DNA of 64,000 bases from positions 13,366 through 77,365 of IMG/VR virus record IMGVR_UViG_3300049432_000156, one strand, 5' to 3'. This DNA comes from a virus. Under the pieces are notes generated by a model. The model did not search any database, was not told the origin of the DNA, and saw only the letters and a list, made by a program, of their open reading frames with translations. The translations under genes and the position numbers were made by a program. How positions within the stretch are numbered: the stretch's first letter is position 1; every line of letters begins with the position of its first letter. Positions 1-30,783 of this stretch are shown here, piece after piece.

Positions 1-58
1 CGCGAGCAACGGCACGACTGAAACGACAATCCCGGTTGGCTCCAGTGAGTTGTTAGAG
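1..58 (-). repeat. attC-like site 0 (truncated by window edge)
   Basis: Minus strand CTCTAAC (R'', 58-52), 5-nt spacer, then ACTGGAGCCAACCGGGA arm resembling the arm of site 2. Confidence 0.7.
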
Positions 59-244
59 GCGCTTCGGCGATGGCGCTACTTTGAAAAGAGACACGCAGCA
101 GTGGTGCTTGGTGAAATCGACATCGACGCACAGCAGGCGAAAGAAGTATCTGACCGTGCGTTGCATCAACTGCGGATTGTGGCGGATAGGGCAATCACGC
201 AAGCCTCTAACGACAAGCTCACCGACCGCCCACCGCGACAATGA
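2..244 (+). CDS. Cassette ORF, 5'-truncated hypothetical protein
   Basis: Frame open from window start; stop overlaps next ATG (ATGA) inside attC site 1. Confidence 0.6.
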   Translation, partial: ASNGTTETTIPVGSSELLEALRRWRYFEKRHAAVVLGEIDIDAQQAKEVSDRALHQLRIVADRAITQASNDKLTDRPPRQ

Positions 245-307
245 AAAACACTGACTCCAAGTCCAACCCGAAAGCGAATGGCGGTTCGGTGCAGCGCATG
301 GTTGGGC
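205..307 (-). repeat. attC integron recombination site 1
   Basis: Minus strand GCCCAAC-CATGC-GCT(G)CACCGA(A)CCGCC...GGCGGTCGGTGAGC-TTGTC-GTTAGAG: R''/L''/L'/R' boxes with two extrahelical bases. Confidence 0.85.
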
Positions 308-456
308 TGCGACGGTGCTCTTGCGGTCTCCGTCCAAAACTCACGCGATGGGAGGGCGGCGTAGAAATCGAATGCAGACTTGGCATGGACGAAGGATGCG
401 GAGACTACATTAATGAAGCGACTGAGGCTCAAGCCCGAGCCGCATGGAACCAGTAA
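241..456 (+). CDS. Lar-like (restriction alleviation) small Cys-containing protein in gene cassette
   Basis: LRRCSCG...C...C...EAQARAAWN pattern resembles the Lar family (LxPCPFCG...EAIxAWN). Confidence 0.6.
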   Translation: MKNTDSKSNPKANGGSVQRMVGLRRCSCGLRPKLTRWEGGVEIECRLGMDEGCGDYINEATEAQARAAWNQ

Positions 457-460
457 GTGA

Positions 461-547
461 GCCCAACGACAAAGCTCAGCGACCGGGACGCTGAGTAAAG
501 TATTAACCCCGCGGCGAATCCCGGTTCGCTGCAGCGATTGGTTAGGT
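461..547 (-). repeat. attC integron recombination site 2
   Basis: Minus strand ACCTAAC-CAATC-GCT(G)CAGCGA(A)CCGGGA...TCCCGGTCGCTGAGC-TTTGTC-GTTGGGC. Confidence 0.85.
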
Positions 548-567
548 AAAAGTAACCCAAAACCACA

Positions 568-783
568 ATGAAAAAAACGACCATAACTCAGGCCCAAGAG
601 GACGCCGTATATGCAATCGGCACCAAATCTCGCGTCAACCTGCACGAAATCCACCCGCGCGTTGCTCGTGCTTTGATAAAAAAAAGACTGATCGAAAAAC
701 AATGGAACTCGAACGATGCAAGCGGAGAAAAGCTGAAGCTGACGGACAATGGCAGATCGGCGTTCAAACAGCTTTTTACCTAA
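568..783 (+). CDS. Cassette ORF, small basic winged-helix-like protein
   Basis: 71 aa ending ...LKLTDNGRSAF; stop TAA supplied by the recombination core CCTAAC. Confidence 0.6.
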   Translation: MKKTTITQAQEDAVYAIGTKSRVNLHEIHPRVARALIKKRLIEKQWNSNDASGEKLKLTDNGRSAFKQLFT

Positions 784-796
784 CAGTACTTTAGAC
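778..796 (-). other. attI-like simple site heading the cassette array
   Basis: Minus strand GTCTAAA-GTACT-GTTAGGT; same L box/5-nt/GTT core layout as attI1 (CCCTAAA-ACAAA-GTTRRRY). Confidence 0.55.
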
Positions 797-818: not shown

Positions 819-1112
819 ATGACTCGCAAGCACTCAGCCAACGCACTGGCGGCAAAACAACGCAATCGGTTGGCCTCACCACCACCTGATTACTTCGACG
901 CGCCGGATTACTCCAAGCCCGTGCGCGAGATCGTTTACCGCGACCTGCTGAGCGGCGAGACGCACATATTCCTGTTGTTCATCCATCCGCGCCGGGTCGA
1001 TCAATTTGTTTGCCTCATCGACGGCAAGCCGTGGCTGGCCCAAGCCGGTTGGAGCCGCGTTTTAGCTGGACTCCGCAAGGCTGTGCCACGCTTCTCACAA
1101 CGACCTCAATGA
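819..1112 (+). CDS. Hypothetical phage protein
   Basis: 97 aa, ATGA-coupled to next gene. Confidence 0.7.
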   Translation: MTRKHSANALAAKQRNRLASPPPDYFDAPDYSKPVREIVYRDLLSGETHIFLLFIHPRRVDQFVCLIDGKPWLAQAGWSRVLAGLRKAVPRFSQRPQ

Positions 1113-1366
1113 ACGACGCTCTGTTCAGACCGTCCTCGATGCTCCGCCGGTCAAAGTGTCCGGGGAGCTTGGCGCTTGAATCCACGTTGCCGGAGAGCGT
1201 GGATGACGAGAGCGACGAATACCGAGCAGAAGGTCGCCTGCTACACGCGCTCATTGCAGACCCGTCTCTGCCGAGAGATGAACTAAAGCCGAGCCAGATG
1301 GATTTAATCGAAACCATCGAGAAGGAGGAACGGAATTTTCTCGAATCTAATCTATTCACCGTCTGA
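1109..1366 (+). CDS. N-terminal part of DUF2800/Cas4-like nuclease
   Basis: RPSSMLRRSKCPGS...AEGRLLH, typical N-terminus of phage Cas4-like exonucleases. Confidence 0.7.
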   Translation: MNDALFRPSSMLRRSKCPGSLALESTLPESVDDESDEYRAEGRLLHALIADPSLPRDELKPSQMDLIETIEKEERNFLESNLFTV

Positions 1367-2253
1367 TGAAAGATTACATCGAACTGGTGGAGGAAGCGTT
1401 CTCATTCAGTTGGGATGGCAAGGTGTTGTTCACCGGGCATCCAGACAGTGTGCTTGTGTTCCGCCTTGGTAATCCAGTCATCGTGCGTGAACGGAAGATG
1501 GGGTTCAAAGTGGTCCAAGCTGCTGACGCAAACCTACAGCTTCGTGCGTATATCGCGATGGTATCCGAAAAATATCAAGCGAGCGATTACTACGGCCAGC
1601 TCACCCAGCCGAGAGTTTCATCGAAGTCACACATTGTTTATTATACGCGAGAGGATGTCGCCAAAGCCCGCCTTGAAATAAAGGCTTTATGGGACGCAAG
1701 CCACGCGCCAGATGCGCCGCGCCGGGCATCGCACGACGCCTGCAACTTCTGCCGGGCGCAGACCGTGTGCCCCGAATTTCAGTCTTGGCTCGGTGCCATC
1801 GAGAAATCAAAGCACCTGCCGGTCGCTCAATGGACGGACGGCCAGATGAGTCTGTTTGAGGAACGGCGTGGAATGTTGGAGAAATTCCTCAAGGAGACCC
1901 ACAAGCAGATCTTCGCGATTAAACAGGCTGACCCGGAGAGATTGCCGGGGTGGAGTATAAAGCCCGGAGCTAACGTCCGAAGAGTCAACGACCTTGTCGC
2001 CGCCTGGTCGGCATTGCAGAGTTTGCTGTCCGACGGTTTTGGCAACGAAGCCGCGAAGCAATTCAGCAATTGCTGTGACATCTCAATCGGGGCATTGGAA
2101 GATTTGATTTACAACATGCTCAAGGATGCGGCAAAAAAAAAGAGCCAGAAAGAAGTCAAACGACTGGTCAACGATGCCCTGTCCGGGCTAATTGAACTGC
2201 GACAGAACAAGCCATCATTGGTCAAAGATGAGCGAACAGCACCAAACCGTTAA
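1366..2253 (+). CDS. PD-(D/E)xK Cas4-like (DUF2800-type) nuclease, C-terminal part
   Basis: GHPD...ERKMG, NLQLRAY, CNFCRAQTVCP motifs. Confidence 0.75.
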   Translation: MKDYIELVEEAFSFSWDGKVLFTGHPDSVLVFRLGNPVIVRERKMGFKVVQAADANLQLRAYIAMVSEKYQASDYYGQLTQPRVSSKSHIVYYTREDVAKARLEIKALWDASHAPDAPRRASHDACNFCRAQTVCPEFQSWLGAIEKSKHLPVAQWTDGQMSLFEERRGMLEKFLKETHKQIFAIKQADPERLPGWSIKPGANVRRVNDLVAAWSALQSLLSDGFGNEAAKQFSNCCDISIGALEDLIYNMLKDAAKKKSQKEVKRLVNDALSGLIELRQNKPSLVKDERTAPNR

Positions 2254-2410: not shown

Positions 2411-2761
2411 ATGAGCTTGGTTAAAAAGCTAGATGCCATCCCGCCCTGCCTCGTGCGTTTGATCGCCAGAGACCCACGGCATCCAGGCCGCCGGCTGCCG
2501 CTCTTGGCCATTGCCGAACGCGCCGGCTTGTCCTATGGAGCCACGAGGCGCCTGTCGCTGAAACGCTCGTGGGGCAATGTCACACCAAGGATCATTGATT
2601 CCTTCTGTAGCGCGTGCGGCGTCGACATTCTGCATCCGAAAAGCTCCGTTGATTATCTCAAAAGAACTCTGAGGAAACCAAACGGCTACAAACTGCTGGC
2701 CAACAAATCCGGTTCTGGATCGGCCGAGTCGGTGCTAAGATTATTGCAGACACTCCAATGA
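2411..2761 (+). CDS. HTH DNA-binding protein (XRE-like)
   Basis: LAIAERAGLSYGATRRL helix-turn-helix; coupled to recombinase. Confidence 0.6.
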   Translation: MSLVKKLDAIPPCLVRLIARDPRHPGRRLPLLAIAERAGLSYGATRRLSLKRSWGNVTPRIIDSFCSACGVDILHPKSSVDYLKRTLRKPNGYKLLANKSGSGSAESVLRLLQTLQ

Positions 2762-3738
2762 ATGACGAAAACAAAGCCCTGGAACAGAACCCCGTCCTCA
2801 AGCCGACGGTTGCCATATGGGTCGAGGAGTACAAGGCGCAGAATTTTCCAAGATTCGCGCAGAACACTCGAACCTTAGTGAACACTGAACTTGTCCGGTT
2901 TGCGCTATTCCTTGGACGCCGAGCAATCTCCGGGAACATCCTGCACGAGTACATGGCCGAACAACGTCGCAGGGTTGCAGGCGAATCGCTGATCAGGGCG
3001 ATGCGATGGACTGGCGCATTCCTGAAGTGGGCCGAGGAAATGGGCTACCTGGACAGGCGCTACTCGTCGCTGTCGATCTTCAAATGCAGTGCGGTCCTGG
3101 TCATTCACAAACCGCCGCAGCGCTTCACGCCCGAACAGTACGAAGCGATGAAGGAAGCGACCAAGGGCACCGGATGGCACTATGCCACGATCATGGCGTA
3201 TCGCACCGGCGCACGGTTGAGCGATGCGTGTCTGCTGAAATGGGAGAGCGTAAACCTGGAAGAGCTTTACATTCATTACCTGCCGTGGAAAACCAGGAAG
3301 TCGCAGCGGTATGCGACCTGCCCCTTTCAGGCTGGTGGGGATTTCCACAATGTACTCATTGAGCTAAACGCATCACGGGACAAGCGCCCGCACTGGGACC
3401 AGTTCGTCTGCCCGGAACTCGCGATGAGATACGCGACGCAATCAGACGTGTTCCAGAGCTATGAGCTGAGTCGTCAGTTCGGAGGCTACTGCAAAAAAAT
3501 CGGCGCTGCGCACCTGAGCTTCCATAAACTGCGTAACACGTTCATGGCGAAATGCGTTGACGGCTCAATCCCGTTCGCACAGGCGCGTCAGATTACGGGG
3601 CTTGGTAGCGACAGCGTGTTCATGCGATATGCGAAACCGAATCTGGATGTTCTCAGAGTCGCAATCGACAAAATTGATTCGCAAGACTTGCCTAAAGGAA
3701 CGTCGATTATTCAGTTGCCGCAAAATTCGGCAGCTTGA
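2758..3738 (+). CDS. Tyrosine recombinase/integrase family protein
   Basis: TGARLSD (R), WKT (K), FHKLRNT (HxxR), MRY (Y); no IntI-specific insertion. Confidence 0.85.
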   Translation: MNDENKALEQNPVLKPTVAIWVEEYKAQNFPRFAQNTRTLVNTELVRFALFLGRRAISGNILHEYMAEQRRRVAGESLIRAMRWTGAFLKWAEEMGYLDRRYSSLSIFKCSAVLVIHKPPQRFTPEQYEAMKEATKGTGWHYATIMAYRTGARLSDACLLKWESVNLEELYIHYLPWKTRKSQRYATCPFQAGGDFHNVLIELNASRDKRPHWDQFVCPELAMRYATQSDVFQSYELSRQFGGYCKKIGAAHLSFHKLRNTFMAKCVDGSIPFAQARQITGLGSDSVFMRYAKPNLDVLRVAIDKIDSQDLPKGTSIIQLPQNSAA

Positions 3739-4439
3739 GTCCAGCGAGCGAGCGCAATGTCAGGCCAATTGGAACTCTTACCAGCCGCATGAACGCCCCA
3801 AACGTCAAAGACGCTATCCAATTTTTGAACGGTCCCAAGCGCGGACTGCTCGGCCAAATCGTCTCCGTTGATGGCGACAGGGCGAAAGTCCTATCCCGCG
3901 ATATGGACGGTACACCGCACTTCTTCGAGCTTTCCGATGCTGACGAATTCGCTTTCGTCGGCGTAGCCGCGCTCGGTCCAAAGCAGAATGCGGCGGCAGA
4001 GACGGAACAAAAACCCTCTCTTCCGCCCCCGCTCAATCCGCAGGAACTCTTGGAGCCGCTTCCTCCGGAAGTGAAGGTCCAACCGTTGAACGCGCAGCCA
4101 GAGGAGGAAGCGCCGCTGATGCCGAAGCTCAAGCCGCTCCACAAGCCCGGTCATCGCCGCATCAAACCGACTCGCGCCAATCCAACGCCCGCACCGCGGC
4201 CAGAGGTTCAGAGGCGGCAATTCATCGCGACCGTGAGGAACGCTCTCGGGCAAGAAACCACGGTGGAGATTGCCGTCCGCCTGGATGATAATCCGAATCG
4301 GCACAACAACGTCGCGATTATGAAAGCCATCCGCACCAAGGCGATTCAGCGTGCAAAGCCGTTTCTAGTCCTGGGTTGGAAACTGAAGGAACCCCCTCTT
4401 GTCGCACACCAAACGGGGAGCGCCGGCCTCGAAAGCTGA
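3735..4439 (+). CDS. Hypothetical protein (KOW-like N-terminus, Pro-rich linker)
   Basis: DAIQFLNGPKRGLLGQIVSVDG; start uncertain. Confidence 0.6.
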   Translation: MSPASERNVRPIGTLTSRMNAPNVKDAIQFLNGPKRGLLGQIVSVDGDRAKVLSRDMDGTPHFFELSDADEFAFVGVAALGPKQNAAAETEQKPSLPPPLNPQELLEPLPPEVKVQPLNAQPEEEAPLMPKLKPLHKPGHRRIKPTRANPTPAPRPEVQRRQFIATVRNALGQETTVEIAVRLDDNPNRHNNVAIMKAIRTKAIQRAKPFLVLGWKLKEPPLVAHQTGSAGLES

Positions 4440-8534: not shown

Positions 8535-8836
8535 AACCACTCGCAACAACAAAAACCGCCGCCACTGTAATGTGCCGTCCGCAATTCAGGATCGACTGCG
8601 TTGGCGAGGAAGGCCCTCATTCTGATATGGAGAAATATGGATGGGTGCCAAGTGGGGATGACATGCTTTATCTCACAGTGAAAACCTGTGTGAATACATG
8701 GCATTGCATGGTGCCAAGAGCCGCTATGAACGCCGTGTTCGAGGCGATCAACAAAAACGGTGTCACGATTGAATTTTGCGGTTCAGATAGCCGTCAATCT
8801 CCCATGCCGCTAGACCGCCAGCCTCCGCAGCCGTGA
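8531..8836 (+). CDS. Hypothetical protein
   Basis: Last ORF of + operon, converges on giant gene. Confidence 0.45.
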   Translation: MKPLATTKTAATVMCRPQFRIDCVGEEGPHSDMEKYGWVPSGDDMLYLTVKTCVNTWHCMVPRAAMNAVFEAINKNGVTIEFCGSDSRQSPMPLDRQPPQP

Positions 8837-11800
8837 CTGTCTCGGCCTTCTTGACGCGCCCCTGAGCAAGCTACGAGTTCTCAGCCCACGCCGCAGTGAC
8901 CTTGATCTGAACCCGGAGCGCACGCCGCGCGGAGAGCCAAGAGAGAGTCGGCTGCGCGAACCGCCGAATCCTCCGATGTCGGAAAAAGCGCCTGAGCTTT
9001 CGGATGGCACCGCGCCGAAGCCGCGTCCGCCGCCGAAGCTCCGGGCTGTAGCGCCGCCTCCACCCGTGCCGTAACGGCTGGCAATCTGGTTGAAGACAGC
9101 GTTGGCCTCATTCTGCCGTCCGAGCGCTTCAGGAGTCATACGTGAGTAAATCATTTCGCGTTCGCCGTCCGTCAGCACACGGGAGAACACGGCGGACTCT
9201 GGTGCCCGCGTCCGGATAGCGGAGATGATTGCCTGCTCAGGGTTCGGATTGCCCGACGCACGACTCTGCTCAACGGCTTTGGCAAAGGCTTCGTCCGCCG
9301 TGGACCAATCTCCGACTGCCGCCGCATTCAGAATCGTGTTGTAGAGCGGAGTCATGGGCGTGACGCGCAGATCATTGCCTGACGAAGGCTGCCTTCTCTT
9401 GGCTTCCAAACTCTCCGGCGTATTGGCGCGAAGCTCATTGGCGGCGTTGCGCATCTTGACCAAACCCTCGCGTGATGGCGCCCGGTTGATGAGCGCCCGC
9501 GCCACGGGCGAGTAACGCGCCAGGAAATCCACGGCTGGCCCGGCATCACGGCTCTGGTAAATCTTAGCCATTGTTTGAAGGAGGTCCGTGACGTAGTTCG
9601 CGCCGAAGATCGGATTGCGCAGACCGAGTTTACCTGGTGTATCCTTGAACCCTTTGAAGATGCTGCCCGCCGCACCCCAGAAGTTCGCCGCAACAGAGAG
9701 CAGAATCTTCCAGCGATCATCGTCATTGTCCGCGTCCAGGAAATCCGGTTGCGATGAGATCGTGTTGAACAACGCGTCATTCGCACGCTGCCCGGGAATC
9801 CTCGCAACCAACCCGGCTATGCCCGATGCGATCAGGAAGCCGAACACAAACGGCAGATAACGCACGTCACTGCCTTTCTGGCCGCGGACCTTGGCGAACA
9901 ATTCCTGCAACTTGTCCGTGTTCCAAAGAAACCATTGGCCGAGCACACCGCCAATCTGCCGTTCTTTGCTGCCCATGAAATACGTCGGCCTGCTCGTCGG
10001 CGTGCCCATGTTCGTGTCTTCGGCCATTTTGAACTGCAACGCATACCGCTGCGCCGGGGTCATAATCGGCGCTGTGCGGTTCCCGTTGGGATGCGTCTTG
10101 TTCCACCAATACTTCAGCATGATCAGGTCAACCGGATCGTTGTTTTCCAGGAACATGTTGCGAAGCTGGACAGCGGCTTTGCGCATCGTCAGTCCGACGA
10201 TGATTGGGTCTTTGCCCGTCAATTCGGCAGGTGACAGGAGTTCACCCTTGCCATCCGGCCCGATCAAAACACCGGAGAACCGTTTGTAGTTGTCGCCGTA
10301 TTCCCGATAGAGCCTTGCGAACTCCGGATCGTTCTCAAGCCGGCTGTCGAATGCGCGCATCGCCCGGACTTCCAAAGACCTTCCAAGGCTTTGCTCCTTG
10401 GCGATGGATTTGACATTGATCCAGTTATCGACGGAGCGCATGAAGCCATGCCGCAGTAAGACTTGTCCGGCGCGCGGGATCATCCCGATGTAACCGAACG
10501 CTTCCTTGCTCCCGCTCAGACTTGGGTCGGCGTGAATGTCACGGAACGCGGCCATTGCCGCTTTGAAGTTTTCCGCCAGCGTCCATTCCGCATTGGTGCC
10601 CATCGCTTCCCGGTAAGAGAACCGGTCGATCATGCCCATCCTGGCCTGTTGCTCTCGGTCGGCAGCTTCCTGAGCCATGCCGGATACGATCTCCGTTGCC
10701 GCTTCTCTCAGGTCGCGATTGTCCAACAGCCGTTTGACGGCGTTGGTCTTCATTGCACGCAGAGCTTTAGCGCCCGGGCGAAGACTGACAGGTTCGCCTT
10801 TCCACTTCAGATACGGCACTTTCAATTCCGCCAGAGCAGCAGTTTTTATGGCCGTGCGCACCCAATCTTTTACGAGATGGCCTGTCACCCACAACCAGCC
10901 GCCTTTGCGGATCTCCGCCGTCTTCAATGCCCACATGAACTCGCCTGAAACGCCGTTCGTGATCAAAGTCATCGGTGCCAGGAGCACGTTGCTGACGGCG
11001 AAATTCCACCACGGCATGAACATCCGTGACGCGATGTCATCACCGAAGAATCCCTCGCCGCGTTTTGCGATGTCGGTGACGTTGTTTAACAACCTGCCAA
11101 TGCGGGCGATGTCCCGGTTCACCTCCCAGATCGCCATCTGATGTTTCTGCACGGACTCGTTTCCGGAGACGATGGCTGCGTTCAGCTTGCGCCGGGCCTG
11201 CCAGCCGGTGCCACCGTAAGCGTCCTTCAACGTCTTGGACAACGCGGTCTTCTCCGCGAGTAACGCAGTGTTCAACGACCGCAGGCTGTCGCGGTACTTG
11301 ATGACGTAGAATTCTAGGGCATTGGCGCCTTTGCGGAAGGCATCAACCGGGTCGGTTGTTCCGTACCGGTACAACGTGCCAGGAGCAATCTTTCCGCCGC
11401 GCGGCTGGGTGAATTCGTTCTCATGCACGGTGATGTCCACATTGGCCGCGGTCGCTTTCCTTGCGTTATCATCCGAGACCTTCAGCATGAACTCGTTCAC
11501 TTCATCAATCAGCTTTCGTCGGACTTCGCCAGCAGTTGCCGGTGGCAGTGGCGGGTCAGAGCCTGCGATTCGCTGGTTATACCGATCTGCAATGAACTGC
11601 GCTAACTCATCCAGGCTGGCCGGCATCCGGCCCTCTCTGAACAAAATCTCGCGTTCGTTCCGTATCCGTTTGTAATCCTCAGCGAATTTGCCTTGGCCAA
11701 GCTGGAAATAAGGGCGCTCGTCTTCAAGGACGTGCCCGAGCACGACGCGTTTGTACCGGTCCCCGGCGCTGAGGAATTGGTCGATCTGATTATTCTCCCG

Positions 11801-14800
11801 GGCGCTCTTCCACAACGCCGGCAGTTCACGGCTGCTCGGTGGCAGAAATCGCGGTATCGTTCCCGGCCCGCGCGACAATGGCGCCCTGAACATCCTGAGT
11901 TCATGCTCCTTGATCATGGCCGGGTCCTCGGCCAGGGCGGATTCAAACCCGGCGCGCTGCGCCAGGCGGACAAGGTGTTGCTCGAATTCGTACTGCGTCC
12001 GGATCGCCGCCATGTCTTCTTTGGTGATGACGTGTCCGAATGGTGTGTGCTCGCCGACGTTGTATAACGTCTGTCCAGTGTGCTGCCGAGAATCGTGGAT
12101 GAACGAAGCCACTTCATCGCGCCAACGGTCCAGCGTCATCCCCGGATGCGACCGCATCGCCTTCAGGTTTGTGCCCCGAATGATTTCATCGAACTTCTTC
12201 TGCAACGCATTGTTGGTCTTGAGCGCAAGCGAATAAGCGTTGCCTGCCCTTATCATCTTTAGATTGAGAGCGCCGGGTATCCTTGAAGCCGTCGTTGCCG
12301 AGATCAATCCGTACTTTGATTTGGTAACGAAATTGAACCACTTGATCGGGTTGAACCAAGACGGATCAGTCAGCCGATCGTTGTCCGCGTGCGATGCCAA
12401 GATTTGAGCATCGATGTATTCCGCGAAGTGCATCCAACCAGCGGCTTTGATTGGATCGGCATCCGGTCGCGCCGCGTATTCAAGCCCGGCATCCTTCAGC
12501 GCGTTCAGTTTCAGGAGCAATTCAACCTGCCCACCAAACCGGTAATCCACTTCAACGTCAGCGCCGGTCAACGGATGCTCGTATGTGACAACGACACCGT
12601 CCACCGTGTTCTTGATGTCCTTGATTGCGCCGGTTGCACGCTGCATTTGCTTTCCGAAAGCCACGAATTCTGGGTTGGCATCATGTTCGTTTAGGAACTG
12701 CGCGGCTGCTTCCAGATTCGCCTTCTTTTCAGTCAACGTCTCGATGCGCCGGTCGAGCCGCCGCGCAGCGGCACTGAGCGCATCGGATTCGACTTGAGCC
12801 TTGGCATACTCCTTGAGAATCGCATTGAAACCGCGCGGCGTCCTCGAACGAAGATCGTTCAGGTAATCCGCGTTGAACCGCCGCAACGTTCCGTCGGCCG
12901 TCATCTGGACTTCGAGCAATGCCTGCCGCCAATCGCCAATCTGACGAAGACCCCAGAGCGTTGCCTCGATGACATCGCGCCCAGCGTTGATGGCCTTGTT
13001 GCCTTCCGGTGTTTGGATTTGGTCAAGATGCGTTGCCAATTGGCGGACCCAGGCGCGCACCGTGAGCGGTGGCGATAACCCAGGCGAACCAGTTTGAGTC
13101 GCGATAAGCTCAAGAACGTTTTCGCCAGGCCGTTCAGCCGTCAAAGCAGCGCGCCCGACCAGCCGGGTTATTCCACTCAACGCCCGTGCGTGCGCCACGG
13201 GTTGACTGAGCAAATCATTGAGTTCAGCGATGTGTTCGATGCCTTCGCCGATGACTGCGTTGGTGTGCGCTTTCTCTCCGACAGCGATTTGTTCGGTATG
13301 GATTTTGTCGATGATTTCTCCAAGCCGATTGGTCCGTTCCACCTGCGCTTCGTTGGTTTCCGGTGTGGCCGTGATGCGGTCGGTAATCGCCTGGGCATGA
13401 TCAACGGCAGCCGCCTCCACTTTACTCAGGATTTTCAGCTTCTCCGCCTGGTACAGGTTCCATTCAACAAAGGCATTGTGTGCGTGCTCAGCTTTCTTTT
13501 CCGGCGTGATGTTCGGGTCAGCCATGACCTGGGCGAACGTTGGGCCGGTCTCGCGGTGCGTCCCAATCCTGCCGCCGAACATGTCTTCAAGCTCACCGCG
13601 GATGCCGGCGGGCAAAGCTGTGTAGCGCGGAATCACCGACGACGGCACCAACCCCTTGTTGATGACCGACGCCATTGCGCGGAAGTATTCCGGTGTCCGG
13701 GTTTCCTCCAACGGTTTGACGTACTCCTCGACGGCCTGGCGGGATTCCAGGGCGGCTTGGGTGCCCCTGCTGCGGCTTATGCTGGGAGGTTCCGCGCGGG
13801 CCTGCCCGGCAAGGATGTCCCCGATTGGGCCAGCAGCGCGATCTGCCGGTCCAGTTCTTCCAAGGCCGGCACGTCCTTGTTCCGGAATGCCGACAACTCC
13901 CGGCGCATTGACTCCAAGTGGACCTTCACCAGGCCGTGCAGCTTCACCGGGTCGTTCGGGGCCAACGGCTGAAGAAGATTGAAAACTCTCGGCACGATTC
14001 CTTGTATTGTAATTTTGGAGTCGGTCATTGATTTCATTGAATGCCTCCCAGTTTGTAGTAAAAATCTTGTCCAATGTCCCCTCAAAAATCTCGACGGGTA
14101 TGTCCGCCGAGCGGAGTCTGGCATAGTTGTTCGCGAGTTCAGCGGTAAAATCGGCTCCTTCTGTCCTGGCGGCAACGTGGGTTATTTCGTGAATGAAGAT
14201 GTGCAGAGCTTCCGATGCCGCCGCTGCCGGGCTGCTCCTACCCGCGTTGGAGAACAATCCGAGGTTGAACCATATCGCCCGCATCGGCTTTACCATGTTC
14301 AAGCCGCGATAATTCTTGTCGAAAGAGATTCCGCCGAACCATCCGGTGATCGAAGCGTCGGTGAGTTGTTCGTACTCGCCTCCAACTTTCTTGCCCCATT
14401 CGCGCATGAAGTTCAGAAGGACATTGCCGGTCTCGGTGATCAGTGTCCCGGCGCGCGGAATGTCGTCAAACTCCACGGCGACGTTGTTGTGAAGATTCGG
14501 CACAGACGGGTCCATGTCGCTCACGTCGATTTCCGTTTTCTTCAGGTCAATCTCGCGCTTTGCCTCGAAAGTCTTTCTGACGTACTCCTGCTTGCTCTCG
14601 GTGATCGCGGTTCCGTCCCTGTAGTGAATGACGACATCCGGGCCTCGAAAATCCACGGACTCAATTTCCTTCGGCTTTCTGATCGGAGGCGGCGGTTCGG
14701 ACTTCTTTCGGAAATAACGCCGCTCCATGTCGGCCATCTCTTCCGGCGTCCAATCTTTCATCGGATCAACCTTCTCCAATTGCCGAATGCTGGTGAACGC

Positions 14801-30280: not shown

Positions 30281-30783
30281 GGCGCAGGTGACGGCCCGGA
30301 TGGCGCTGGTGGACTCGGAGCTTTGGCCGGCGGGATACGACCCACGCGCGGCTTCGAGAATGAACTCGGCACCTCTAAGGGCTGAACTCTCTGCTGCCCA
30401 GCTTGCTGCTGCGCCTGGTTCGGCGATGAAATCACGTTCGGCCCGGGCACCACTGTGCTACCGACGGCGGCTGCGCCCGCAGCACGAATGGCTTGGAGTT
30501 GTTGAAACGGGATTGGCCCCAGACTCTCCCGATCCCGCACTGGCGATGATCCCAAAGAGGACTGAGAGGTTTTTTTTTGTGCCAGCCATGAATTATACTC
30601 GGCCTCCGTCAACGGTATCACCCCGCCGGTGTGCGTCTTCACCGCGCGATCAAGCTCAGCGATTAAATACCCATCAGACGTCGCCAGAATTCCGTAGGTG
30701 CCGCCGATGTCCTCGAACGGCGCCTTCGACCCGTTCGGAAGATAAAGCGCGGATTGAACCAGTTCCTTCAAATACCATTTCAT
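30277..30783 (-). CDS. Hypothetical structural-operon protein
   Basis: MKWYLKE start overlaps upstream stop (ATGA). Confidence 0.6.
   Translation of the reverse strand: MKWYLKELVQSALYLPNGSKAPFEDIGGTYGILATSDGYLIAELDRAVKTHTGGVIPLTEAEYNSWLAQKKTSQSSLGSSPVRDRESLGPIPFQQLQAIRAAGAAAVGSTVVPGPNVISSPNQAQQQAGQQRVQPLEVPSSFSKPRVGRIPPAKAPSPPAPSGPSPAP

Follow-up and report, generated by a model that had tools for sequence, protein, structure and literature searches.

Probable integron-type attC cassettes with reversed genes in the recombination operon of a phage

The IMG/VR virus record IMGVR_UViG_3300049432_000156, from soil, comprises 77,365 bases with an estimated completeness of 73% (CheckV), of which bases 13366–77365 are herein referred to as the window (64,000 nucleotides); the 13 kb upstream of it were examined as well. 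Window positions 1–784 form the right-hand end of an array of integron-type attC sites that occupies record bases 11977–14149, between recT (TIGR00616 match, 2e-45) and a gene for a PD-(D/E)XK nuclease. The record also encodes a RusA resolvase (match at 1e-19), a virion structural protein and a primase-helicase, and we treat it as a phage because of this gene content and because of a syntenic viral contig of 77.7 kb with direct terminal repeats (L026) that has the nuclease and the array in common with it. A sequence-only reading of the window had described three small open reading frames (ORFs) at its start as cassette genes inverted relative to their attC sites; each feature that it described is present at the position it gave. 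The window, however, begins in mid-array, and base 1 is preceded by five further sites, of which four are recognizable and one is a collapsed remnant.

All eight marks of the array lie on the + strand: six full sites and the collapsed remnant (record 11977–13912) and a terminal half-box (record 14143–14149). Sites were scored with a covariance model, R1, built on an alignment of the attC family. The best-preserved site, attC G (record 13826–13912, window 461–547), scores 57.5 bits (E 1e-15) on the + strand and only 14.6 bits on the − strand, so that the orientation call is clear; its DNA fold has a z score of −3.3, its L box is GCCCAAC (461–467, predicted crossover A466|C467) and its R box is GTTAGGT (541–547). 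Next to it, attC F (record 13570–13672, window 205–307; 46 bits, E 6.7e-12) consists of an L box CTCTAAC (205–211, predicted crossover A210|C211), a left arm to about 230, a 49-nt loop at about 231–279, and a right arm (280–307) with two bulged bases, an ATG at 298–300 and the R box GTTGGGC (301–307). The stem of attC E (record 13320–13423, window −45 to 58; R box GTTAGAG at 52–58) is degraded, and the site scores 15.1 bits with an E value of 0.059 over all sources and 0.0014 in a local search. Outside the window lie attC D (record 13055–13148, 27.2 bits), attC C (12812–12919, 25.3 bits) and the most distal full site, attC A (12135–12235, 27.7 bits), which has lost its AAC box. The terminal half-box, ACCTAAC at 778–784, marks the end of the array, and RYYYAAC/GTTRRRY boxes with conserved AAC and GTT are present at F, G, E (R box) and this terminal box. 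At the far end of the array the collapsed site (record 11977–12006, 17.9 bits) has the start of a left arm fused to the end of a right arm (GCCGAACGGCCAAGC joined to GCGCATGGTTCGGG).

The array region holds copies of an imperfect palindrome, and a 21-nt pattern taken from its right arm for scanning matched in 29 other viral contigs (about three expected by chance, on a rough estimate) and at no fewer than 120 loci in bacterial metagenome-assembled genomes (MAGs), nearly all of them labelled Verrucomicrobiota or Planctomycetota among the matches listed; many of the listed loci carry multiple copies, 400–1000 bp apart, and the phage hosts are probably members of one of these two phyla. The common bacterial form is a 93-nt element of nearly invariant sequence. 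In the sense of the window + strand, the family consists of a 7-bp outer helix (GCCTAAC/GTTAGGC), an unpaired spacer of 5–7 nt, a 16-bp inner helix with two single bulged bases on its 3′ arm, 6 bp apart, and a variable loop. Across the 23 pairs of the R1 alignment, 93% of paired cells are standard pairs and nine pairs are changed on both sides; covariation exceeded all 500 of 500 shuffles on five of five measures. To our knowledge, attC is not an Rfam family. Two side observations concern the family as a whole: the bulged base nearer the R box is C rather than G in 192 against 22 bacterial right arms and in 49 against 16 viral ones (all loci), G thus being relatively commoner in the viral copies, and the near-invariant 93-nt site spans MAGs (L033–L160) labelled Verrucomicrobiota, Planctomycetota and others, a uniformity across distant labels that is unusual for attC. 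Some of these bins carry the labels Klebsiella, Bifidobacterium or Saccharibacteria, probably through mis-binning.

The identity of the repeat and its strand follow from the bacterial arrays. Searching five MAGs that carry such arrays with the integron integrase (IntI) model TIGR02249 (cut-off 265 bits) gave full matches of 447.7 and 427.1 bits in L153 and L158 and a copy split over two frames in G001, and all three integrase genes directly adjoin arrays of this repeat. With the repeat oriented as in the phage, the cassette ORFs of these three arrays lie on the minus strand, several with signal or lipoprotein leaders, and have their stop codons within or at the CCTAAC box, with intI on the plus strand to their right, the classical divergent geometry. 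The adjoining integrases and this geometry identify the repeat as the attC of these integrons and the phage + strand as the attC bottom strand. By definition, the bottom strand begins with RYYYAAC, ends with GTTRRRY and has extrahelical bases on the arm near L″ (PMC5027507), and the bulged bases of the phage + strand, on the 3′ arm beside the GTTRRRY box, match this definition (Nivina 2016). Two independent criteria, bulge position and the opposite ORF strand of the three IntI-adjacent arrays, therefore agree that the phage genes are inverted relative to attC. The phage sites have the boxes, the bulged hairpin with spacer and variable loop, and same-family arrays beside IntI, and the units they delimit are genuine integron-type cassettes with their genes on the attC bottom strand, opposite to the canonical one.

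On the phage + strand, a cassette was taken to run from the C of AA|C in the left-hand box through the attC and gene body to the ...CTAA of the next box. At six of six junctions, the R box and flank of one site are complementary to the L box and flank of the next over 8–11 nt: 10 nt from A to C, 10 nt from C to D (read by eye), 11 of 14 from D to E, 9 nt from E to F (GTTAGAGGC at 52–60 with GCCTCTAAC at 203–211), 8 nt from F to G (GTTGGGCT at 301–308 with AGCCCAAC at 460–467) and 11 of 11 nt from G to the end of the array (GTTAGGTAAAA at 541–551 with TTTTACCTAAC at 774–784). When a cassette is a circle, its own first bases complete R′, so that its two ends match beyond the consensus box, and we read such complementarity as the signature of cassettes closed at the canonical crossover, as would be expected of cassettes made by IntI; the last cassette of L026 carries it too. 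The terminal box and its junction with the phage backbone span 774–818 on the + strand, and the sequence to the right of C784 (CAG..TTAGAC..CTTGAAAGG) is common to the relative L021 (reverse strand, about 4041–4110), with the switch falling exactly at CTAA|C: backbone is conserved rightwards, and the adjoining cassettes differ. This suggests that the backbone has a conserved site of entry at 784–818, where an attI would be placed. On its top strand, the conserved junction also holds an inverted pair, TCTAA(A/T) and GTTAG separated by 5/6 nt, a candidate attI-like entry site.

On the mRNA strand the order of a cassette is, 5′ to 3′, attC, gene and ...CTAA half-box. The frame of a gene opens in the variable loop of its own attC, or else at a conserved ATG next to the R box, and reads out through the arm; its stop is the TAA of the following box or lies a few codons inside the following attC, in many cases overlapping the start of the gene after it. 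Each gene lies behind its own attC and points toward the array end at which cassettes would be taken in. Cassette E carries ORF1 (84 aa, + strand). Its frame opens with an ATG at record 13355 (window −10), passes along the right arm of attC E and over the cassette boundary 210|211, and closes on a TGA (242–244) inside the attC F loop; the assignment draws on context and a weak codon score. ORF2, the gene of cassette F (211–466), occupies 241–456 on the + strand and encodes 71 aa with a four-cysteine, zinc-ribbon-like arrangement; as the sequence-only reading had claimed, its ATG lies within the loop of its own attC, the frame passes through the right arm at 280–307 (GGSVQRMVG), and the TGA of the preceding ORF overlaps this start (241–243) in a shared ATGA. 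The ATG at 298–300 in the arm is an alternative start. ORF3, the gene of cassette G (467–783), likewise encodes 71 aa on the + strand (568–783), and its TAA (781–783) is the final three bases of the cassette, within ACCTAAC (778–784), again as had been claimed.

The same grammar extends upstream, with ATGA at site C, TGAtATG at site E and an overlap of 16 nt in the loop of site A. At site G no gene overlaps the arms. The idea of attC-derived peptides did not survive, since the right arm is read in all three frames (b at A and F, c at C and E, a at D), which places the conservation of the arms at the level of DNA and not of peptide; in the left arm, F differs in frame from E/G by a 1-nt indel. 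Most copies of the family have an ATG just before the R box (GCATGGTTAGG), a ready start for any bottom-strand ORF in frame b. Among box-crossing ORFs of this phage, four of four have AAC in frame as an Asn codon, including RusA on the other strand (record base 9481). A fixed reading frame across AA|C, considered from a 30:13:4 skew in viral contigs, was rejected as confounded: the third frame is stop-free in the standard attC, and the bacterial skew is similar.

That the + ORFs are genes is best seen in ORF2. Homologues were found among 1.8 billion representatives (P0003, E 1.4e-6; P0004, 1e-5) and at four metagenome loci (L161–L164), and a viral-contig scan with the ORF2 alignment returned no relatives. 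Over 49 aligned codons shared with the copy in L161 (63% identical), the differences number 8, 5 and 24 at codon positions 1, 2 and 3, and the changes are 16 synonymous to 11 nonsynonymous in the + frame and 1 to 26 in the in-phase antisense frame; this excess at third positions and the contrast with the antisense frame indicate purifying selection and coding on the + strand. In an AF2 model, residues 20–71 form a beta-beta-beta-alpha core (pLDDT 85–91), and residues 1–16, those encoded by the attC loop and arm, are a disordered leader (pLDDT <50). Fold matches to phage proteins named Lar restriction alleviation are weak (E 0.03–0.8, TM 0.45–0.6). An assignment to this family was rejected, as its profile was unmatched in Pfam, NCBIfam and PHROG, and we use "Lar-like" as a lead only. 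An ESM Atlas model of ORF3 (pTM 0.56) aligns over all 71 residues with MarR-type winged-helix clusters (TM 0.83–0.86); its profile matches, to NCBIfam MprA/BilQ and Pfam WH_AprA, are weak (E 0.02–0.2). Searches with the small ORFs returned nothing significant in Pfam, NCBIfam or PHROGs, and a sequence search of the PDB was empty.

These results bear on the possibility that the cassettes are ordinary ones with minus-strand genes and that the + ORFs are chance frames in GC-rich DNA. A minus frame of 239 aa is indeed open over 166–885, and the codon scores of the − frames are about equal to those of the + frames. That frame crosses three attC sites and matches no family, however, and the substitution pattern of ORF2, the complete winged helix modelled for ORF3, and the flanking genes and stop/start overlaps, all of which lie on the + strand, make the explanation very improbable.

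We surveyed the orientation of ORFs relative to attC, as the sequence-only reading had proposed, by scoring each right arm for a + ORF that starts in the loop or arm and runs at least 50 codons past it, against a minus ORF of at least 50 codons that stops at the box; this test replaced the open fraction between sites and the strand of flanking long ORFs, both of which were too noisy in GC-rich DNA. Bottom-strand ORFs dominate the viral contigs (79 sites: 37 bottom-strand only and 12 top-strand only, six of these from L029), and the reverse holds in bacterial arrays of the same attC family (230 sites: 21 bottom-strand only and 105 top-strand only). Counted by contig, bottom exceeds top in 20 viral contigs and top exceeds bottom in 2, against 14 and 66 bacterial ones. 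The odds ratio for 37:12 against 21:105 is 15 (p = 3.5e-13, 29 viral contigs); sites are not independent and the sample was pattern-selected, so that the p value overstates the case, and the direction of the contrast is still plain.

Reversed cassettes are also found beyond phage. The locus L163, an array of the bacterial type, has nine attC sites on one strand and lipoprotein cassettes on the minus strand, and at its positions 989–1320 a homologue of ORF2 forms a single reversed cassette that starts in its own attC loop, which is the standard loop with CACGGG changed to CATGAA, creating the ATG. On this evidence, the reversed cassette appears to be a unit in both bacterial-type and phage settings. 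Among phages, the relatives L021, L026 and L028 also have an array immediately before the nuclease gene; its orientation is the one seen here, and its contents differ. The contig L030 has attC types C, D, E and F of this phage (75–93% identity, including the loops) in the order E, F, C, D, with gene bodies unrelated to those described here; its attC F is 93% identical, yet the next ORF is unrelated. The body of ORF2 is shared with L161 from the right arm onward, and the loop and left arm differ.

Taking these lines together, we consider it likely that window positions 1–784 are the entry-side end of an integrase-less cluster of genuine attC sites (CALIN) with reversed cassettes, lying within an early/recombination operon of the phage. 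By the usual definitions, the array has at least two attC sites with no intI nearby, as a CALIN does; it is not a complete integron, there being no TIGR02249 match in the record, and it departs from the rule that a cassette gene lies on the top strand upstream of attC, as its genes lie on the bottom strand downstream of attC.

Several points weigh against this reading. No match to TIGR02249 was found in the 77-kb record (estimated 73% complete), and IntI was not found in five other array-bearing phage records (the three syntenic relatives, L030 and one 100% complete record, which has eight attC matches, seven of them in one array), so that a recombinase acting on the phage sites is assumed, not seen. 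Of the six full sites, F and G are intact and the other four (A, C, D, E) are degraded (15–28 bits, with stem mismatches), the degraded ones being those farther from the entry end, and much of the array may be fossil. Mosaics of the kinds seen in L030 and L161, with the same attC before a new body or the same body behind a new loop, are unexplained by canonical IntI crossovers alone. The dependence among surveyed sites and the pattern-based choice of the sample belong here as well, as does the uneven support for the small ORFs as genes: the coding evidence that the sequence-only reading asked for came through for ORF2, with homologues and a codon signature, and in part for ORF3, which has its winged-helix model and, in a word-indexed search, no sequence homologue beyond itself; for ORF1, profile and homology searches gave no homologue or family match. 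Codon-usage log-odds trained on long phage ORFs failed to separate + from − for small ORFs. A BLASTP comparison of ORF1 with the ORF behind an attC of similar right arm in L161 gave no match.

The mosaics require recombination within conserved arms and so keep homologous, perhaps RecT-type, exchange alive as a rival. On that account, the sites derive from attC and no longer serve IntI; the conserved arms would now serve as short homology linkers, for recombination of a general or RecT type when phages co-infect, or would form mRNA hairpins with start codons in a loop, or would do both, and the cassette-end signature would be a relic. The position of the array directly downstream of recT and near the RusA resolvase and nuclease genes fits this account, as do breakpoints between phages that coincide with the boxes in some cases and lie at or within the arms in others, the lack of an IntI match in the record and in the five other records, and the degradation of four of six recognizable sites. 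What it leaves unexplained is that the AAC, the GTT, the spacer and both bulges are kept, with compensatory stem changes in phage copies (L161, L163), all needless for homology linkers, that the backbone junction switches exactly at CTAA|C between two phages, and that the same cassette family occurs with the same polarity in a bacterial integron-type array. We regard this rival as rather unlikely.

The genes around the array bear on whether it belongs to the phage at all. The first backbone gene after the array (819–1112, + strand) encodes a 97-aa protein of unknown function, 82% identical in amino acids to the product of its positional counterpart in L021. It is followed on the + strand by the DUF2800/PD-(D/E)XK (Cas4-like) nuclease, in two ORFs at 1109–1366 and 1366–2253 (Pfam DUF2800 2.9e-11, PDDEXK_1 1.3e-8), and by a tyrosine recombinase at 2758–3738 (Pfam Phage_integrase 5e-11) that belongs to the general phage-integrase family, is not an integron integrase, and showed no similarity to the L153 IntI by BLASTP. 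A fragment of a chromosomal integron of the host, misassembled onto phage DNA, or host DNA beside a prophage, might produce such a juxtaposition; the attC family is abundant in host-type MAGs, and at least one IMG/VR contig (L029) resembles a bacterial-type array. Against this, phage genes flank the array on both sides (recT and the nuclease), the same locus is found in three related viral contigs, one with direct terminal repeats, and the polarity is the reverse of that in host arrays, and we give the idea hardly any credence. A viral-contig scan with the nuclease protein returned no relatives. The order of the DUF2800 nuclease differs between the window (1109–2253) and the relatives L021, L026 and L028 (tblastn): in the window the 85-aa ORF stands before the 295-aa ORF, unlike the arrangement in the relatives, where residues 4–66 of the 295-aa ORF precede the homologue of the 85-aa ORF and residues 75–287 follow it.

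We hypothesize that the reversed cassettes would be transcribed by read-through from the phage operon and not from a Pc promoter. No terminator-like site was found on the + strand within the + strand block that runs from recT through the integrase gene and holds the array; a promoter/terminator scan gave a result at chance level. Ribosomes crossing both arms of a site would keep its hairpin open and couple neighboring genes, a translational coupling that we infer from the ATGA and TGAnATG overlaps at some junctions. As IntI was not found in the record, a host IntI would have to act in trans if the sites are active; it would gain, lose and shuffle cassettes at the AA|C of the left-hand box, making the locus a putative hot spot for small accessory genes, such as the Lar-like zinc ribbon and the winged-helix protein. 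The reversed layout may be an adaptation, or phage operons may act as a filter that lets only some cassettes persist. More broadly, and with something short of even confidence, we envisage that phages of Verrucomicrobiota and Planctomycetota keep a mirror-image pool of cassettes in which attC doubles as a site for host IntI and as a translation-start leader that carries the neighbor's stop, with genes that would be swapped among phages, exchanged with host integrons and always expressed from the operon.

Elsewhere in the record, a pair of attC sites of the same family stands upstream in the opposite orientation (record 9010–9099 and 9374–9481), with − strand scores of 46 and 60 bits. RusA, encoded on the − strand at 9466–9960, runs into the left arm of one of them and stops there, and the + ORFs 8629–9015 and 9119–9379 end on the box TAA, as canonical cassettes do; the latter ORF has a homologue, P0008, at 84% identity, and both are probably canonical cassette genes. 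Far from the array, a weak partial attC match at window positions 30381–30424 (16.9 bits, E 0.016) is probably a chance match or a relic.

If the cluster of reversed cassettes is what it seems, the pool of integron cassettes extends to a second compartment on the phage side, part of an attC site can code for protein, and phages may shuffle accessory, possibly antidefense, genes by means of a host recombinase. Phage attC clusters and even integrons have been published, and attC sites from phage were shown in the same study to be recombined by IntI1 (Qi, Rajabal, Ghaly, Tetu, Gillings 2023, PMC9892861). Our array has in common with those phage CALINs the presence of attC arrays in phage genomes with no intI nearby. 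The published phage cassettes are described as "oriented in the same direction, typical of bacterial arrays", and the section on them reports no bottom-strand genes, attC-loop starts or systematic reversal, whereas here reversal is the rule across the viral contigs of the family (PMC9892861). No report of bottom-strand coding or attC-loop starts was found in the literature searched, an absence that is not proof; what appears to be new is thus the reversed layout, phage attC clusters being already known.

A further point of comparison is the entry of cassettes away from att sites. According to a preprint, IntI inserts cassettes at non-att genomic sites (bioRxiv 10.1101/2022.09.11.507474), which offers a possible route for a first cassette into the phage backbone in either orientation. 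The backbone junction conserved in two phages suggests instead a dedicated entry site, unlike random non-att insertion. Mobile promoter-plus-stem-loop regulatory cassettes (PeSL) of the hyperplastic regions of T4-type phages are alike in placing recurrent structured elements around small, variable early genes and in favoring the shuffling of modules; they differ in that they are not attC sites and are unconnected with integron integrases. Toxin-antitoxin cassettes are often reverse-oriented. Those of chromosomal integrons are promoter-bearing exceptions (PMC13108822), and they resemble the present cassettes in expression independent of Pc, which would apply here by read-through, and in the occurrence of a reversed cassette among canonical ones, as in L163. 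Each of them has its own promoter and stands alone as an exception; in the present case the reversal extends to whole arrays, which appear to depend on read-through.

Among the systems closest to the phage array are classical integrons, above all sedentary chromosomal ones whose attC sites are nearly identical, such as those of the Verrucomicrobial loci L153, L158 and L159. With these it shares the attC family, the architecture (R boxes, unpaired spacer, L boxes with two bulged bases, variable loop), the predicted crossover point and the matched ends. In integron theory, bottom-strand selectivity orients cassette genes behind Pc, and no promoter-facing cassettes have been reported in sequenced integrons (PMC5027507). 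From classical integrons of this kind the phage array differs in that no intI was found, its genes lie on the bottom strand, its attC sites stand 5′ of their genes and would be partly translated, and the whole array is set in a phage operon.

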